A DNA stretch of 64,000 bases from contig CBDEFQ010000005.1 of assembly GCA_965237485.1 (NCBI GenBank), forward strand, positions 430 through 64,429, read 5' to 3'. This document shows positions 4,165-12,891 of this stretch, piece by piece. Origin of the DNA: Candidatus Poriferihabitaceae bacterium. Lineage in GTDB: Bacteria > Pseudomonadota > Gammaproteobacteria > Arenicellales > Poriferihabitantaceae. The notes beneath the pieces were generated by a model that was not told where the DNA came from, did no database searches, and saw nothing but the letters and a program-made list of their open reading frames with translations. Positions within the stretch are counted from its first letter, which is position 1. Every line of letters starts with the position of its first letter. The translations under genes were made by a program, and so were the position numbers.

Positions 4165-5340
4165 GGGCTCGTCGGTTAATACAATTTCAAACAGGGTTTT
4201 CGCCGAAGTCGCTTTTAGTTTGCTCAGCAACGCGTTTTTTGTGCAATAAACCGTCTATTGGCAGCCATTTTGCCACCAATAGACGGATCTATCCCTAGGC
4301 CGGCACCAATTCAACTCGTTCAACTCCCAATGCCATTAATCGCTTAAGGTTAAAACATAAGCCCCTGATTCCAACTTGGAACTGGACTTTAGCCAACCCT
4401 TTATAACGAACTCGCTTATTGCGATGAGCAAACACTCGCTCATATGGTGAACGAATTTTGCTAATCCAACGGTCTTTGTCTCTATTCTTGCCATGCATAT
4501 TGTTCTTCTTGATTGTTGCATCATGGCAACCGTTGCGCCTGAGCGTGGTTTTGGCCGGGCTCACGCAATAACCCTTGTCCGCATAAACAGCGCCCGACTT
4601 AGGGCAAACATGCTTCAAGCCGCTTGCATCCGTTACCTCAGCCGAGGTGGCCGCTATTTTATTGATCAAGCCACTTTGCATATCCACTGATGCATGCTCT
4701 TTGTAACCATACCAATATTTGCTATTTCCCTTGCACCCAAACCGTGCTTGCTTGTCCGCCGCAACTTTATCAACTGTCTTATTGTTGAACTCCTCTAATC
4801 CCATCTTTATCGCCTTATCTCTATCATCCCAAGTGGTTAGCTTACTGACCAACTGGCTGGCATCGACAAATGTGAATACTTCTCGTACTAAGCCCATTGA
4901 AACTAACCCGCTCCGAACACGGTCAAATAAATTCATCATACCCCTGGTTCCAATGCGTGAGCGAAAATCACCAAAGTAACTATGATCAGGAGTGCTCTGT
5001 TCCAGTCCTGAATCACAAAACCACTTAGCGGCCAGATTCTCTGATAAGTATCGCTCCATTTCTCTATCACTTAAATCTTCCATGAACTGAAGCACCAAGG
5101 CACGTAAGCCGAACTCAACACCTCGGCCTTTAGGGCCACGGGTGGCATATATTTTAGAGAAGGGTTTACTCAATGCACCAAAACATAATAGCTCATCGAG
5201 TTTACGGTAGGGATGTTCAGAGCTAACCAGAGAATCTAAGGTTAGGAACAGTTGGCTTTGATGACGTTTGCTCAAAATTGCAGGCTGACTAGAATCAGCC
5301 CATATTATCTCACGTATTCTATTAATTATCCGACAAGCCC
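4165..5340 (-). mobile_element. IS5-family element, copy 1 (1176 bp)
   Basis: IRs GGGCTCGTCGGTTAAT / ATTATCCGACAAGCCC; 5-bp DR TGTAT. Confidence 0.88.
4295..5275 (-). CDS. IS5-family transposase (probable TTG start)
   Basis: LSDREMERYL, TPDHS, FVDAS, YADKGY and RSPYERVF motifs; the ORF-track start lies outside the element. Confidence 0.82.
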   Translation of the reverse strand: MSKRHQSQLFLTLDSLVSSEHPYRKLDELLCFGALSKPFSKIYATRGPKGRGVEFGLRALVLQFMEDLSDREMERYLSENLAAKWFCDSGLEQSTPDHSYFGDFRSRIGTRGMMNLFDRVRSGLVSMGLVREVFTFVDASQLVSKLTTWDDRDKAIKMGLEEFNNKTVDKVAADKQARFGCKGNSKYWYGYKEHASVDMQSGLINKIAATSAEVTDASGLKHVCPKSGAVYADKGYCVSPAKTTLRRNGCHDATIKKNNMHGKNRDKDRWISKIRSPYERVFAHRNKRVRYKGLAKVQFQVGIRGLCFNLKRLMALGVERVELVPA

Positions 5341-5942
5341 TGTATCTACACGGATATAGCCAGGTGCGTATTTTTACAACCGTGGCCACCGAATTTTACG
5401 AAGCGTGGCCACTTGCACCAAGCCTTCAAACGGTCAAGTGATTTTAACGTAAAGTGGCTACACTTTGCTCTGTTGTGACTGGATTTTTCTCATCGATTCC
5501 CCCTCTAATTGTATTTTGTGCGCGTTGTGTAATAAGCGATCCAGAATCGCATCAGCCAAAGTGGCTTCACCAATCGCATCATGCCAATGTTGTGTGGGCA
5601 ATTGACTGGTGATTAAGGTGGCACCATTACCGTGGCGATCTTCTATTATTTCTAATCGGTCATTACGGTTTTGCTGAGTCAGTGTATCCAAGCCCCAGTC
5701 ATCGATAATCAATAGTTTGATTTTTGCTATTTGTGCCAGTAGCTTGGTGTAACTGCCATCACCATGGCTCAAGGTCATTGCTTCAAATAAGCGGCTAGCA
5801 CGAATATATTTTGTGCTAATGCCGTGCTCACAAGCCGCTTGTCCTAACACACAGGCCAAGAAGGTTTTGCCGGTGCCTGTAGGGCCTTGGATGATGACAT
5901 TGCGGCTTTTGTTTAGGGAATTATATACTTCAGTATGCAAAA

Positions 5943-6092
5943 TTACTTCCTTTCCAGCTTCCATCGTCTGTTTAATTCCTCTTTTGTTGGTTTGCGATTC
6001 TCATAGATTGTCTGTGAAGGGCGTTTCGCTCCCAAAACTTCTTTTGCTGCTATCTTAAAATCATTTTCTGTTAGGTTGTCGTATTTCACCAC
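5943..6092 (-). CDS. Small basic 49-aa hypothetical protein, last gene in the IS1595 element
   Basis: Manual translation MVKYDNLTENDFKIAAKEVLGAKRPSQTIYENRKPTKEELNRRWKLERK; GTG start 5 bp after the REase stop, stop adjacent to the IR. Confidence 0.5.
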   Translation of the reverse strand: MVKYDNLTENDFKIAAKEVLGAKRPSQTIYENRKPTKEELNRRWKLERK

Positions 6093-6097
6093 TTTAT

Positions 6098-6832
6098 TCA
6101 TTTTTTACTCCGTTTTTTATCAACATAGTTAACCCAATTAACCCAGTCAATCTCTCCTTGTTGGGATATTCCCGATTCAATAAGGAATTGAGTAACCGCG
6201 CCTTTTGCTAATGTTTTTGATTCCATTAATCCGTTTTGAGCGTGCGCAACGAATATACTCAGCAAAGCAATGTGAGTATCTTCCCAACCGCTTACTTCCT
6301 CCCAGAAGTCCGATCCTATGTAAGTGTAGTAGCTGCCTCTACTCCGGTTACTCGCAGGGCCATAACATACGCCCTCAATGCATCTTACATGCACGTTATT
6401 TCCCTGCTGCAAGATTACGAGTGGCTTTATTGAAGTAGTCAGACAGTTTTTCCTTTGTGAAGAGTTTCCCCAATTCTTTCCCGATTTTACTTGTATTATT
6501 GTTCTGGTTTCATTTTCAACATATTCTATATCTATACCTTCTGCTGTGGATTTCATCCCATTTTTCGCAGACTGGCATATAACAACTGCGCATTGTTCCG
6601 CCAACGTGCCAAACATAGTTTCTTCACTGGAAGACAGAAAGGCATCTAAGACCGAGGCCGCAAAACCATCAGTTTTGTTGGTGGCCCTTAAACAGAAAAG
6701 GTAAGGATTCTTTCTCCTTATAAGTTCCTCTGGCTTTAGCGTTTCCAGCTTACTTTTAATCCTGACTGCGAAGTCTGCGACATTCGCATTCAGTCTGTTT
6801 TCTGCTTTTTCCCACCATTCAGGGTAAATCAA
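6098..6832 (-). CDS. Type II restriction endonuclease, PmeII-like PD-(D/E)xK family (possibly damaged)
   Basis: RRKNPYLF, LSSSEETMFG, GIDIE and QVKSGKNWGNSSQ motifs; TTG start overlaps the MTase TGA. Confidence 0.75.
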   Translation of the reverse strand: MIYPEWWEKAENRLNANVADFAVRIKSKLETLKPEELIRRKNPYLFCLRATNKTDGFAASVLDAFLSSSEETMFGTLAEQCAVVICQSAKNGMKSTAEGIDIEYVENETRTIIQVKSGKNWGNSSQRKNCLTTSIKPLVILQQGNNVHVRCIEGVCYGPASNRSRGSYYTYIGSDFWEEVSGWEDTHIALLSIFVAHAQNGLMESKTLAKGAVTQFLIESGISQQGEIDWVNWVNYVDKKRSKK

Positions 6833-9039
6833 AACGATCTTACCCTTTGTCGCATCAAAGCACAATACTCAGTCTTGTCCAACATGAAATGATACTGAGA
6901 GAAGGGACTGATTCTAATCGGAAATGATACCGAACTAATCTAATTTCTGTTCATGATGGTGAATGAATACCATTATGAATGACCACCATATAGATACCCT
7001 TGATAAGGCACGCTTGTTGCTACAAGGCACTGATGAAATCGATCTGGCAATCGACGGTAAACGCAATCGCTATGATTTCATCAAACGCACCTTAATGCGT
7101 TTCAAATACAGCAAACCGGGTCGAGCCGATAAGGGTCTTGTGCTGCGTTATATCACACGCATCAGCGGTTACTCTTATGTGCAAGTGAAACGCCTGGCTG
7201 CCAGCTATCTCAAGCACGGTAGAATCCAGTGGCGACATCGTGCCACAAGGGGCTTTGCTAGACGCTATAGCAATCAAGACATTAAGCTTCTAGCAGATAT
7301 GGATGAACTCCACGGTACGTTATCAGGCCATGCCACTAGGAAACTCTGTGAGCGCGCCTTGGTTGTCTATGAGCAAACTGAGTATGCCAACCTGGCACGT
7401 ATCCCGGTTTCTCATCTATACAATCTACGCCGATCTAAACCCTACCAGAACAATCGCCGTCACTTTGAAAGACACATTCCAAGCCTTCTTCTATCGGCCA
7501 AAGACGTAAGCCACAGCCAGAAGGTCAACCTGGCTATAGCCGTGTAGATACAGTGCATCAGGGCGATAAGGACAAGGTTAAAGGGGTCTATCATATCAAC
7601 GCCGTTGATGAGATCACCCCGTTTGAAGTCGTGTCTTCTACACAGAAAATATCAGAGCCATTCTTGATGCCTATTCTCACTCAAATGCTAGAGCAGTTCC
7701 CCTTTGTGATTAAAGGCTTTCATGCCGATAATGGCAGTGAATACATTAACCAATCGGTGGTGCGATTGTTGAATAAGCTATTAATCGAGTTGACCAAATC
7801 CAGGGCTAGACACCGTAACGACCATGCCTTAGTTGAGTGCAACAATGGGGCCATCGTGCGCAAGCATCTTGGCTTCATGCATATCCCGCAAAAATATGCG
7901 CCTGATATTAATCAATTTGCCACCGACTTTCTTAACCCTTATTTGAATTATCACCGACCTTGTTTCTTCCCACAGACCAGCACTAACAACAAAGGAAAAC
8001 AAGTCAAAACCTATCCATATCGAAACATGATGACGCCTTATGAAAAACTCAAATCGTTGACCAATGCACAGTCATATCTTAAAACTCACATCTCGTTTAC
8101 AATGCTTGACGATATCGTTTATCAGATGACTGATAATGAGGCAGCAAAACAACTCAATGAGGAAAAAACTAAACTCTTTAAAAACATCTTTGAACAGAAA
8201 TGACAATCAACTTCTCGGTATCATTCCTGTATTGGAATAGACTTACTCACTAGATACGTCAATGCCTATATGATGCTCGGTGTAATTTATGTGCTGCGGC
8301 TAGCGTAGTTCCAGACCCAGCGAATGGGTCAAGAACCACGTCGCCGTGATCTGTAAATAGCCGGATAAACCAGTTGGGTAGTTGCTCAGGGAAAGTCGCT
8401 GGGTGCCCTGAATTGTTACATTGAGTAGCCATGTGCAAAACGTTCGTTGGGTATGCCATATCGCGCCCTTCCCAGTTCGCAACACGCTTACCAAATCCGT
8501 TACCATGGGCACTCTCATCACGAGTTTTGTCTGTATCAGACAAGTTTTTCAGCCGTGCTTTTTTCCAATCACCCATAGGTACACGCACAGAATCCTGGTT
8601 CATTTTAAAGTTTTTGTTTTTGGTGAAATGCAATAAACGCTCCCATGAGTCCCTGAACCGATTAGGCCACTTGCCCGGGTATGAATTCTTCTTATGCCAG
8701 CAATATTCTTCTACCCAGAGCCAGCCCTGACTGCGCATTCCTTGTATTAGCTCAAGAACATAAGTGTGCCTTTCCCCGTTAATCGCTCTTTCCTTATATA
8801 TTTAGAATAAAAGAACCTGTCGGCCTTAAGCAATTATGCAACTGTTCAGCACGGGGTAAAAACCATTCTACATATTTGTCAGCACTTACCCCTCCGTAGT
8901 TGTCTTTTCTTTGGTCAGCATAAGGAGGTGAAGTAACTATTAAATCGACTGACTCATCGGGTATCTTTTTCGAGATTACCTTCAAACAGTCTCCACGAAA
9001 GACTGTTGATGTGTGGACTCTTTCAAGAACCGCGCTCAT
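6829..9039 (-). pseudogene. N4-cytosine/N6-adenine DNA methyltransferase (beta class); two +1 frameshifts and an IS insertion
   Basis: [22 protein letters not shown] and [11 protein letters not shown] motifs; frameshifts near 8796 and 8270; last codons EYCALMRQRVRSF lie beyond the IS at 6829-6870. Confidence 0.88.
6871..8243 (+). mobile_element. ISNCY/IS481-like IS, copy 2 (1373 bp), transposase frameshifted
   Basis: AGTCT...AGACT termini; 5-bp DR TACTC; transposase split between ORFs 6963-7547 and 7553-8203. Confidence 0.88.
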
Positions 9040-9963
9040 GCCACCAACTCCTTGAATGTCAGTCGCTTCCCGCTCATTCCTTTACATAGTGCTGACATTC
9101 TATCCAGCGTATCTACACTACAATTACCCTCGTTCAGTCGAAACGTGAACTCATCGACATATCGCTGGCAGTGCTTAGCACTCCAGTTGTGGTAAATGCC
9201 GTTGTAGCCACGTTTCAGGACCGCCCAGACGCTCTCAATGCCGTTTGTATGCGCCATGCCGTTCACGTACTCCTTGGCACTGTGCTTGACCGTGCCGTGC
9301 TGGTAGGCGGCTCCTAGCTCGTTGTAACCCTTGTGTTCATCCGTGTAGACCGTAGAGCCGGCCTTAACCGTGCTTTTAATAAAGCCTTTCAGTGTTGCGC
9401 CATCTGTTTTGGTTATTACCTTGGCTTGAACGTTGCCGCCGCGCTCTTTGGCACCAATAACCGCTTGCTTGCCTACCACTCCACGTCCAGCTTTTAACTT
9501 CTTGTGTTCGTGCTTGTTCTTCTCCTTGCCGCCCAAATAGGTTTCGTCAATTTCCACGATACCCAGCAGTTTGCCGCTATCGCCAGAACAAGCCTCTCGA
9601 ATTCTCTGTAGCATGAACCACGCTGATTTCTGGGTAATGCCCAGCTCTTTGGAAAGCTGCGAGGATGAGACACCTTTGCGGGCCGTTAACATGCAATACA
9701 TAGCAACCGCCCAACACTGCAAAGACAAAGGCGATCCGTGCATTACGGGTATCTGTCTTGACATTAAATACCTTACGGCAAGGATTACAATAATAGTTGT
9801 GTAACCTTGGCTTGTATTCTTTGATCTTATCCGTGCCTTGGCATTTCGGGCAAACAGGCTTTTCACCCCACAATGTGTATTCCATCCATTTTGCTGATTT
9901 TGCATCTGATGAAAATCTTGTGATCAATTCGACTAGACTAATTGTCTTTGCTGATTTTTTCAT
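9036..9963 (-). pseudogene. IS1595-family transposase with a +1 frameshift near 9748
   Basis: Zn ribbon CPKC...CNPC (9577-9963 frame) and EIDETYLGGK, VYTDEH, HTNGIESVW, YVDEFTFRLN (9036-9905 frame). Confidence 0.9.
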
Positions 9964-10925
9964 TTTTGCCTTATCCTCTATATTTGCATACTACAATACC
10001 ATGTTATTAACTACATGTACAGACAAATAAACGGTGTGTCTTGGTTTGAAATTATGCAATATTGACAATATTCACTAAAAGACCCTTTGCATACTGAAGT
10101 ATATAATTCCCTTTGTTTACCCCGTCTAGGGCCAGTAACTGCGCTACCGTGTCTTTGTGTAAACCTCGTCTAGTTCGGTAATCGATGTCGTCTGCTTGGG
10201 CGCGATATCGTAACTTCGCTTGCTTGAGTAAACGCGTGACTTTGCGGTTATCCCGCACGGTGGCCTCGTGGTTTACGAGCAAACTGAGTCGTTCGATAAA
10301 GCCCAGCTCATCATAAGTGTTAGGTGGGTCGAACTGATAGCACAGTTGCTCGGCCATGCCCGTTAGGCGTAATTCATTCAGTTGGGTAAGGGTTTGTTGT
10401 GGAGTCATAGTATTTTCCTGTTGGTTATAGATGAAATGGTTTGGGTTAATGGTAGTAATCGGCTCCGCGCACATTGGCATGGGTGCTTGGCAAAGTCTGT
10501 TGCTTATCGGGTTCGGTAGGTAGCTTGTCGAGACGGGTTTGTAGTATTGATGCAAGGTGTTTGTAATGCAGGCCGCCAATCTTCTCTGCGCGTAAACAGG
10601 CATTCTCTAAACGCGTCTTGCCGTATTTCTTGGCAAGGTTAAGAATGCCCAAACAAGCACGATAACCATGTTCTGGATGGGGGCGATTTTCTAATTGATA
10701 ACGCACCACGCGCTCTGTCGCCGCACCGACCTGACTTGCCCAATTAAGAAACCGATCAGGCGTCCACTCTTGGTGTTTAGCATGAGCTTTAGGCATGTGA
10801 GCGACATGGGTTGTGTGTCCGCCTTGGCCCATTGCTCGCGGATGTTGCGCGACACCCTTGCCTTGGTAGAACACATCAATACAGTGCTCGCCCACGTGTA
10901 ACATTACTTCCTCGCCGCGCAATTG

Positions 10926-12101
10926 GGGCTCGTCGGTTAATACAATTTCAAACAGGGTTTTCGCCGAAGTCGCTTTTAGTTTGCTCAGCAACGCGTTTTT
11001 TGTGCAATAAACCGTCTATTAGCAGCCATTTTGCCACCAATAGACGGATCTATCCCTAGGCCGGCACCAATTCAACTCGTTCAACTCCCAATGCCATTAA
11101 TCGCTTAAGGTTAAAACATAAGCCCCTGATTCCAACTTGGAACTGGACTTTAGCCAACCCTTTATAACGAACTCGCTTATTGCGATGAGCAAACACTCGC
11201 TCATATGGTGAACGAATTTTGCTAATCCAACGGTCTTTGTCTCTATTCTTGCCATGCATATTGTTCTTCTTGATTGTTGCATCATGGCAACCGTTGCGCC
11301 TGAGCGTGGTTTTGGCCGGGCTCACGCAATAACCCTTGTCCGCATAAACAGCACCCGACTTAGGGCAAACATGCTTCAAGCCGCTTGCATCCGTTACCTC
11401 AGCCGAGGTGGCCGCTATTTTATTGATCAAGCCACTTTGCATATCCACTGATGCATGCTCTTTGTAACCATACCAATATTTGCTATTTCCCTTGCACCCA
11501 AACCGTGCTTGCTTGTCCGCCGCAACTTTATCAACTGTCTTATTGTTGAACTCCTCTAATCCCATCTTTATCGCCTTATCTCTATCATCCCAAGTGGTTA
11601 GCTTACTGACCAACTGGCTGGCATCGACAAATGTGAATACTTCTCGTACTAAGCCCATTGAAACTAACCCGCTCCGAACACGGTCAAATAAATTCATCAT
11701 ACCCCTGGTTCCAATGCGTGAGCGAAAATCACCAAAGTAACTATGATCAGGAGTGCTCTGTTCTAGTCCTGAATCACAAAACCACTTAGCGGCCAGATTC
11801 TCTGATAAGTATCGCTCCATTTCTCTATCACTTAAATCTTCCATGAACTGAAGCACCAAGGCACGTAAGCCGAACTCAACACCTCGGCCTTTAGGGCCAC
11901 GGGTGGCATATATTTTAGAGAAGGGTTTACTCAATGCACCAAAACATAATAGCTCATCGAGTTTACGGTAGGGATGTTCAGAGCTAACCAGAGAATCTAA
12001 GGTTAGGAACAGTTGGCTTTGATGACGTTTGCTCAAAATTGCAGGCTGACTAGAATCAGCCCATATTATCTCACGTATTCTATTAATTATCCGACAAGCC
12101 C
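10926..12101 (-). mobile_element. IS5-family element, copy 2 (transposase ~11056-12036)
   Basis: Near-identical to 4165-5340; 5-bp DR AATTG in istA. Confidence 0.88.
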
Positions 12102-12891
12102 AATTGATAGGGAACCGAGTAATGATGTCCATCATAGCTAACGTGATAATCGATGTGCGCCCGTGCTTTTACTACATGGCGATAGCTATAAGGCGTGCCA
12201 GGCAATGATTTAAGAGCAGGCTTATCAATTGATTCAAACTGTGAGCGGCGAGAACCCGGGCGTTGTTTAAAGGGGCGATTGTTTAGATCATCTAGCAATC
12301 CTCGAATAGCTTGATTAGCCTCATCCAAACTAAACAATTGCAGCTTGCGCAGCCGCATCATGATCCAGCGTTCGACAATCTGTACGCCCACCTCGGCTTT
12401 AGATTTATCCTTAGGCTTATAAGGTCTGGCAGGCATCACCGCCACACCGTAATAGGCGGCTAATTGTGCATAGCTGGGGTTGAGTTCGGGGTCATAACGA
12501 CCGGCTTTAGAAACAGCACTCTTGAGGTTATCGGGCACCACTGTTTGAGTAACACCGCCATAAAATTCAAAGGCGCGAACGTGTGAGCCTATCCAGTCAG
12601 GCAAGCTCTGTGTCCATGTGGCCTCGGCGTAGGTATAGGAACTGACTCCGAGCACTGAAACGAATACTTGGGCAGGGCGTGCTTCACCCGTACGAGCATC
12701 AATAATACCTAAGGTTAAACCAGCATAATCAACAAACAGTTTATCTCCAGCAATATGAGTCTGGCGCATCGAGATTCTTTGCTTCTTGCGCCACTGACCG
12801 AACAACACCGTGAAGCGAGAATAGCTGTAATGGTTGACTGGATGATGCTCGGCGTATTCTTCCCACAGTAATTGGCGAGTCATCCCTTTAC

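Follow-up and report, generated by a model that had tools for sequence, protein, structure and literature searches.

The 64,000-nucleotide stretch analyzed here (the window; contig CBDEFQ010000005.1, positions 430 to 64,429, of Candidatus Poriferihabitaceae bacterium assembly GCA_965237485.1) holds, at 5916-10111, a mobile element bounded by perfect inverted repeats (IRs) and carrying the remains of a type II restriction-modification (R-M) system. We consider it highly probable (roughly 85%) that this element is a transporter insertion sequence (tIS) of the IS1595 family whose R-M cargo was acquired horizontally and decayed, and that the resulting composite, with a second insertion sequence (IS) nested in it, then multiplied to the eight copies found in this genome. 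The mobility of R-M systems is known and their vehicle is rarely seen; in this case a whole type II operon lies inside an IS with a single transposase.

The copies carry the argument. When the genome (4.17 Mb in 11 contigs) was searched, eight places matched the part of the element encoding the transposase and methyltransferase and eight matched the part encoding the endonuclease, at ~100% identity; six of the copies have their full length, another is interrupted further and the last is divided between two contigs. All eight have the nested IS at the same site, the first of two frameshifts in the methyltransferase gene and the same out-of-frame stretch in the endonuclease gene. Three of the six full-length copies are flanked in situ by perfect 8-bp duplications that differ from copy to copy (TTTGTTTA, ATAATTTA and TAATTTTT). 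Two more 8-mers (TAAATTAA and ATAACTAA) find their match at the end of another copy, a pattern that recombination among copies would produce, and five ends are unpaired. Because damaged cargo and nested IS occur in all copies and the duplications differ, the 4.2-kb composite transposed repeatedly after the damage. An earlier note on this DNA, made from the sequence alone, had proposed that the unit moved as one piece, and the eight copies with five different matched duplications bear this out; the copies at other loci that it suggested looking for do exist, but with no intact cargo among them, the methyltransferase gene being broken in all eight. Logan contigs from sequencing runs of two studies reproduce the endonuclease region and the region of methyltransferase plus transposase without any insertion or deletion except at 9747. 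Those of runs X1 and X3 carry both methyltransferase frameshifts and the endonuclease stretch, and the lesions are therefore not artefacts of this assembly.

The element and its target comprise the following features.

5458-5915, minus strand: IS21 istB target, C-terminal part (PF01695 profile positions 90-237, E 1.2e-50)
5908-5915: 8-bp target-site duplication TTTGTTTA, left copy (an 8-mer found once in each of 25 uninterrupted istB copies)
5916-5941: terminal IR, cargo end, read inward GGGAATTATATACTTCAGTATGCAAA (perfect match to 10086-10111; first 15 nt as in the element of a Nitrosomonadaceae metagenome-assembled genome, MAG)
5943-6101, minus strand: small open reading frame (ORF) of 52 aa from the ORF list, its ATG overlapping the endonuclease TGA
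6098-6832, minus strand: type II restriction endonuclease, PmeII/EcoO109I family, 244 aa from a TTG at 6832, open and internally scrambled (PF14511 RE_EcoO109I, E 3.6e-46)
6422-6454, minus strand: endonuclease residues 127-137, an out-of-frame stretch (compensated double frameshift; frames compared with the family consensus)
6829-6865, minus strand: methyltransferase tail, the last 11 codons and stop (CALMRQRVRSF), severed by the nested IS (aligns with the C-terminus of the intact relative's methyltransferase)
6872-8243, plus strand: nested IS of ~1372 bp (boundary +/-1 nt) with an rve-type transposase (sequence and profile match), flanked by a 6-bp duplication, TACTCA, at 6866-6871 and 8244-8249
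8245-9039, minus strand: N4/N6 DNA methyltransferase (beta class, SPPY motif), frameshifted near 8797 and 8270 (PF01555 matches both pieces)
9036-9963, minus strand: IS1595-family transposase (putative zinc ribbon and DDE domain), with one extra base at 9747 in the window copy (PF12762, NF033547)
10086-10111: terminal IR, transposase end (perfect match to 5916-5941)
10112-10119: target-site duplication TTTGTTTA, right copy (pairs with 5908-5915)
10112-10603, minus strand: IS21 istB target, N-terminal part (PF01695 profile positions 1-93, E 2.6e-13)

Architecture and insertion of the element

A repeat finder returned inverted arms of 27 nt at 5915-5941 and 10086-10112 that are 100% complementary. 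Their outermost pair is part of the direct repeat, so the IR proper is a perfect 26 bp (5916-5941 and 10086-10111), and these IRs and the 8-bp repeat enclose the element as the earlier note had stated. The flanks are the two halves of a single IS21 istB gene (Pfam IstB_IS21 positions 1-93 and 90-237). Each of the 25 uninterrupted copies of the same istB in the genome contains TTTGTTTA once, and contigs of two public runs (X1 and X3) preserve the empty site, joining 5907 to 10112 with 8 letters shared. Insertion and target duplication are therefore demonstrated, and istB is split as cleanly as had been claimed. Subtracting the nested IS and its duplication leaves 2818 bp (4196 - 1372 - 6), in agreement with the ~2.8 kb first estimated. 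The GC content of the element (43.8%, against 45.2% for the genome) is not distinctive.

Assignment to an IS1595-family transporter IS with a type II methyltransferase-endonuclease cargo, also proposed before, is upheld by family matches for all three proteins inside the IRs. The transposase matched PF12762 (E 3e-46, 157.6 bits, cut-off 27) and NF033547 (E 3.5e-59, 200 bits, cut-off 75); the zinc ribbon PF12760 scored 24.3 bits (E 3.1e-5), just below its gathering score of 25.4, and the sequence shows a CPKC...CNPC pattern. The extra base at 9747 splits the window copy of the transposase over two frames (9577-9963 and 9036-9905). The other seven of the eight genome copies have no such base and encode an open transposase of 308 aa; contigs of runs X1, X3 and X5 also omit it, and a contig of run X6, from a third study, contains it. 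The best transposase match in a plasmid collection was 44% identical, had no R-M neighbor and was labeled by PGAP as 'IS1595 family transposase' only, with no subgroup. With regard to subgroup, the IR start GGGAATTAT would fit the ISNwi1 end consensus 'ggnnatTAT'. Passenger-carrying members of the ISNwi1 subgroup are 1.75-4.75 kb long.

As the earlier note had it, the genes are co-oriented (transposase, methyltransferase, endonuclease and small ORF all lie on the minus strand), and the two stop/start overlaps that it gave are present: ATGA at 9036-9039 between transposase and methyltransferase, and TTGA at 6829-6832 between methyltransferase and endonuclease. A further ATGA at 6098-6101 joins the endonuclease to the small ORF, and the pattern of 4-nt overlaps is kept in an intact relative from the Nitrosomonadaceae MAG. 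From these overlapping codons, R-M expression may be coupled to transposase expression through co-transcription and translational coupling. The small ORF, put at 49 aa before, has 52 codons for amino acids (5943-6101) and matched no Pfam, NCBIfam or PADLOC family. The MAG element has a 59-aa ORF at the same position, which showed no similarity to the window ORF by BLASTP, and no conserved ORF was found downstream of the endonuclease gene in loci outside ISs.

We propose that in the ancestral form a DDE transposase with an N-terminal zinc ribbon would have acted on 26-bp IRs starting GGGAATTATATAC, inserting the element into AT-rich targets with an 8-bp duplication. Its operon would have comprised the transposase, a beta-class N4/N6 methyltransferase, a PmeII/EcoO109I-type endonuclease and the small ORF, linked by 4-nt overlaps, and each transposition of this form would have carried the whole type II R-M system.

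State of the restriction-modification cargo

The methyltransferase gene lies in three frames. It breaks at ~8797 (…GSFILNI and a stop, then …KERAINGER…) and again at ~8270, and the nested IS cuts it 11 codons ahead of its stop; the pieces align colinearly with the 277-aa methyltransferase of the intact relative. The first frameshift, present in all eight copies, falls after residue 81 of 277 and parts the SPPY motif from the S-adenosylmethionine-binding FAGSG motif. The second is present in seven of the eight, the copy on contig C6 being without that base. No close second copy of the methyltransferase was found in the genome, where the other N6_N4 methylases, at four loci, are only 25-36% identical. 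Judged by its reading frames, the methyltransferase is predicted to be dead in every copy in this genome.

The endonuclease belongs to a well-defined family. Its homologs are 240-246 aa long and 57-63% identical to it. Foldseek gave the EcoO109I structures 1wte and 1wtd as top matches to its AlphaFold2 model (E 9e-9, TM-scores of 0.67-0.69), a profile search against the PDB returned 1wtd (E 3.7e-6), and a direct phmmer search of the PDB gave no match. The protein at 6098-6832 is thus a member of a nuclease family, by PF14511 and by an EcoO109I fold, and the doubt on this point that the earlier note had allowed for is removed. Residues 127-137 nonetheless depart from the family consensus KMEDYFSKARR: the ORF frame reads NCLTTSIKPLV, and the neighboring frame reads KLSDYFNKATR, restoring F134 and A137, each conserved in at least 90% of sequences. 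The fit of the neighboring frame to the consensus identifies a compensated pair of frameshifts, and the scrambled stretch is identical in all eight copies. In the model (mean predicted local distance difference test score, pLDDT, of 89), confidence falls to 58-65 over residues 121-140. Elsewhere it is above 88 nearly throughout, with 76 at residues 141-150 and low values for the last four residues; the intact relative's endonuclease, modeled with the same 32 sequences, scores 94-95 over residues 121-140. From the sequence and the models, we infer that the scrambled endonuclease is probably inactive in this genome.

We also considered avoidance of GGWCC as a trace of past activity and rejected it, as the avoidance is equally strong in a genome where the endonuclease was not found. 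Under a third-order Markov expectation (observed/expected range 0.60-0.65; 400-kb samples of the two comparison genomes), GGACC/GGTCC had ratios of 0.63 in this genome, 0.65 in the Nitrosomonadaceae MAG and 0.62 in the same-genus genome without the endonuclease, ranking first of 1024 5-mers in each. The rarity, being shared with that last genome, is therefore uninformative on the element. CCWGG was the second or third most under-represented 5-mer in this genome and in the MAG.

The nested IS is itself abundant: more than 60 copies, whole or partial, occur in the genome. Its transposase is frameshifted in the window copy and intact, at 413 aa, in the copy on contig C7; the 413-aa protein gave weak rve and IS481 matches. 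No contig of the public runs joined across the nested IS; contigs drop rare forms, and an un-nested form may therefore still exist. Differences among copies of the transporter IS fall mostly within the nested IS, which suggests gene conversion among nested-IS copies. In one sub-lineage of the element (C4:494222-497214) the nested IS is in turn interrupted by ~3 kb. This insert is a further IS, itself disrupted within its transposase ORF by an IS4-like element (DUF4372 and DDE_Tnp_1), which brings the nesting to five levels when the IS21 target is included. The junctions of the insert recur at C6:5255 and C10:373099, so that three contigs have them, suggesting that this 7-kb form transposed again or recombined.

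The earlier note had called the operon complete. It is not: in the window, the transposase and methyltransferase genes are frameshifted, the latter is also cut by an IS, and the endonuclease has an out-of-frame stretch. Nor do the data support, in this genome, the working defense or addiction cassette that had been envisaged, since the methyltransferase appears dead and a conserved endonuclease helix is scrambled in every copy. In the history that we favor, the element would have reached this genome by horizontal transfer; its cargo would have decayed through a compensated double frameshift across the conserved endonuclease helix and through two frameshifts and an IS insertion in the methyltransferase; only then would the 4.2-kb composite have multiplied to eight copies, most likely driven by its own then-intact transposase, and the transposase frame of the window copy would have been lost later. 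The window would thus present the end of a life cycle, with the methyltransferase destroyed, the endonuclease crippled, and the element and a second IS still proliferating. The eight ORFs in this genome that would be named 'PmeII family endonuclease' should not be annotated as active defense genes.

Evidence against the proposed history

Several observations weigh against parts of this history or of the operon model. With regard to transposition, three of the six full-length copies have no matching duplications in situ, which we attribute to recombination among copies, shown for two 8-mers only, and one right flank (ATAACTAA with its downstream sequence) occurs on two contigs, C6 and C7. Both findings would be accommodated if the copies had arisen by segmental duplication, by recombination or as an assembly artefact. 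We give such an origin next to no credence, as five different 8-mers are matched at element ends, the flanks of the copies are otherwise unrelated, empty sites exist, contigs of other runs reproduce the element, and the relative in the Nitrosomonadaceae MAG has perfect, differing duplications at 9 of 13 copies.

A second set of observations concerns the cargo. The 244-codon endonuclease frame is open in all eight copies, with every invariant residue of the family kept, and the second of its frameshifts restores the frame. The R-M system might therefore still work, if the endonuclease tolerates its scrambled helix and the genome is protected by read-through of the methyltransferase frameshift or by a different methyltransferase with matching specificity; candidates for the latter are the four other N6_N4-type loci and the type II methyltransferase carried by a further IS1595 element, described below. 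This is quite improbable in our view. The methyltransferase is interrupted after less than a third of its length in all copies, has a second frameshift and has lost its tail to the IS, and the identity of the other methylases to it (25-36%) is low. The scramble falls on residues that at least 90% of the family share, and local model confidence drops to 58-65, against 94-95 in the intact relative. Moreover, the copies are near-identical, so the open endonuclease frame could simply be young.

The third concerns the source of the transposase. A second IS1595 element occurs in the same genome in three copies (L009, C9:1161101-1164746; L010, C9:1022350-1025995; and one near C3:26158) and encodes an open 308-aa transposase that is 62% identical to that of the transporter IS. 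One copy, L010, has an IR start similar to that of the window element, matching GGGAWTTAYATAC, and could supply transposase in trans to a composite that was itself non-autonomous. We regard a burst driven in this way as unlikely, because the composite's own transposase is open in seven of eight copies, the IR match of the two elements is established for the first 13 nt only, and the simplest reading needs no helper; the element's own transposase, rather than a related one, presumably drove the burst. In this second element the transposase stop overlaps (ATGA) a 315-aa ORF, which is followed by an ORF of 81 aa. PADLOC identified the 315-aa product as a type II methyltransferase (MTase_II, E 2e-62), and the ESM Atlas groups it with S-adenosylmethionine-dependent methyltransferases. 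A search for the far IR of this element did not find it.

The remaining points bear on the operon model. A scan for promoters and terminators gave no excess of sites over shuffled sequences (9 promoter-like sites in the element, 8.2 expected), and the operon model is therefore drawn from the codon overlaps only. In addition, two relatives (L030 and L033) have the transposase convergent to the methyltransferase-endonuclease pair, and coupling of R-M to transposase expression is therefore not general in the family.

Relatives, known systems and surroundings

Among 41 genomes searched, the endonuclease was found in none of 8 same-genus genomes and in 1 of 24 same-family genomes (33% identity), a distribution that points to horizontal acquisition of the element. 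In species-representative genomes encoding a relative of the endonuclease, the methyltransferase gene lies directly upstream in 76 of 80 loci; the pair is, as judged by this gene order, a conserved module. Small plasmids carry it too, and their endonuclease is listed by NCBI as 'PmeII family'. Ten of the 80 loci, which belong to 6 different records, have an IS1595 transposase no more than 6 kb away.

The best example is the Nitrosomonadaceae MAG, which contains an intact element of 2,753 bp with perfect IRs of 51 bp, identical to the window IR over the first 15 nt. Its gene order is transposase (308 aa), methyltransferase (277 aa), endonuclease (242 aa) and 59-aa ORF, with ATGA, GTGA and ATGA overlaps, and the MAG has 15 full-length copies. 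In the 13 copies that we parsed, nine with the differing 8-bp duplications mentioned above, the endonuclease is open in all and the methyltransferase in 7. In the other 6 (L106-L108, L110, L111 and L114) the methyltransferase frame is broken by single-base length differences, which may be real or may be long-read homopolymer errors. The same MAG has a further IS1595 transposase (43-58% identical) beside an N6_N4 methylase-like stretch (L021 10187-11805; L023 7389-8969; L025 7665-9245), suggesting another methylase-carrying transporter IS. Two Chloroflexota MAGs carry elements in which the methyltransferase-endonuclease pair is followed by a convergent transposase within similar IRs: a Caldilineaceae element of 4,055 bp with the duplication TTATTTTT, and a Dehalococcoidia element of 2,986 bp with no duplication. 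The window element is thus a decayed member of a family with intact members elsewhere.

An alignment built from five of these transposases was then used to scan contigs from metagenomes, which gave 80 loci at 48-61% identity, in 26 of which a script found IR pairs. One of these 26 elements is 1,199 bp long and has no cargo, and 25, of 1,687-4,039 bp, carry cargo; the majority begin with GGGAATTATATAC, and 8-bp duplications were found for at least 9. The cargo of 26 loci was screened (the 25 cargo-carrying elements and one methyltransferase-endonuclease locus in which no IR was found). Recognizable DNA-modification or restriction genes were present in 10, something else or unclear in 2, and ORFs without a family match in 14. 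The recognizable cargos are an N6_N4 methylase with an EcoO109I-type enzyme, an Eco29kI-type enzyme, two C5 methylases, an N6_N4 methylase alone, three type IIG-like N6_Mtase/HSDR_N/S units, Mom and an SspD-like protein. BLASTP detected no mutual similarity among the unassigned cargo ORFs, the two weakly assigned ones and the methylase of the second IS1595 element, and no shared passenger family can therefore be defined.

A wider reading, which we offer only tentatively and think somewhat more doubtful than not, is that the clade with ends in GGGAATTATATAC is a widespread, dedicated vehicle for R-M and other DNA-modification modules, in which unrelated cargos are swapped behind the transposase, R-M systems are amplified within genomes and cross phyla, and an element with dead cargo persists as an ordinary IS. 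Bearing on it are the 25 of 26 IR-bounded elements with cargo, the recognizable cargo in 10 of the 26 screened, and the second methylase element in the genome of the window. If it is true, whole R-M systems can be amplified within one genome, as the 15 intact copies in one MAG would illustrate. Our literature searches, the founding 2009 paper on IS1595 aside, found no systematic link of this clade with DNA-modification cargo, and its presence in 10 of 26 related elements merits a systematic survey.

Transporter ISs of the IS1595 family, reportedly described by Siguier, Gagnevin and Chandler in 2009 and kept in ISfinder/TnCentral, resemble the present element in having a single DDE transposase, an 8-bp duplication and passengers between terminal IRs; the zinc ribbon of their transposase has a putative counterpart here. 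Here methyltransferase, endonuclease, small ORF and even the nested IS are such passengers, found in all eight copies at different sites. The present element differs in that its passengers form a whole type II methyltransferase-endonuclease operon with 4-nt overlaps, and in that the cargo is dead and a nested IS is transposed along with it.

R-M units within terminal IRs and with an 8-bp duplication have been reported (Furuta, Abe & Kobayashi 2010, NAR 38:2428, PMC2853133). According to that article, the IRs measure 65 bp in X. oryzae; in N. gonorrhoeae they measure 26 bp, and a transposase-like gene (COG3677) is part of the unit. The article cites the 2009 IS1595 paper among reports of R-M or solitary methyltransferase genes with ISs. 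Those units share with ours the placement of R-M genes inside terminal IRs with an 8-bp duplication. They were, however, single-copy and found by genome comparison, and their authors did not decide between a transposase and the R-M genes as the mover, whereas the present family has an intact transposase, occurs in multiple copies (8 here, 15 in the MAG) and carries a PmeII/EcoO109I-type pair. A whole R-M operon inside a one-transposase IS, with clean target duplications and many copies per genome, provides a concrete mechanism for the spread of R-M systems within and between genomes.

The endonuclease resembles those of PmeII/EcoO109I systems in its PF14511 match, its EcoO109I fold and the 'PmeII family' name that NCBI gives its homologs, and is ~15% identical to EcoO109I and 36-39% identical to plasmid-borne PmeII-family enzymes. 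The site of PmeII is GGWCC, and the P. mendocina methylation matched to PmeII is 5-methylcytosine (bioRxiv 10.1101/2021.02.10.430591); the partner methylase here is instead of the N4/N6 type. Apart from the 2010 report, our literature searches, whose coverage did not extend to supplements or to the founding 2009 paper, found no IS1595 transporter IS with a type II methyltransferase-endonuclease operon. The novelty claimed earlier is weakened: the exact transposase-methyltransferase-endonuclease layout was not found in the literature searched, but public assemblies contain naturally intact elements with this layout, and transporter ISs and transposon-like R-M units are in print.

Two IS1182/IS5-like copies in direct orientation (4295-5389 and 11056-12135) bracket the IS21 that holds the transporter IS. 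At 5337-5365, 29 nt match part of the nested IS (7528-7556) in inverted orientation at 93%, and are probably the remnant of another nested-IS copy that was cut by the IS1182-like element.

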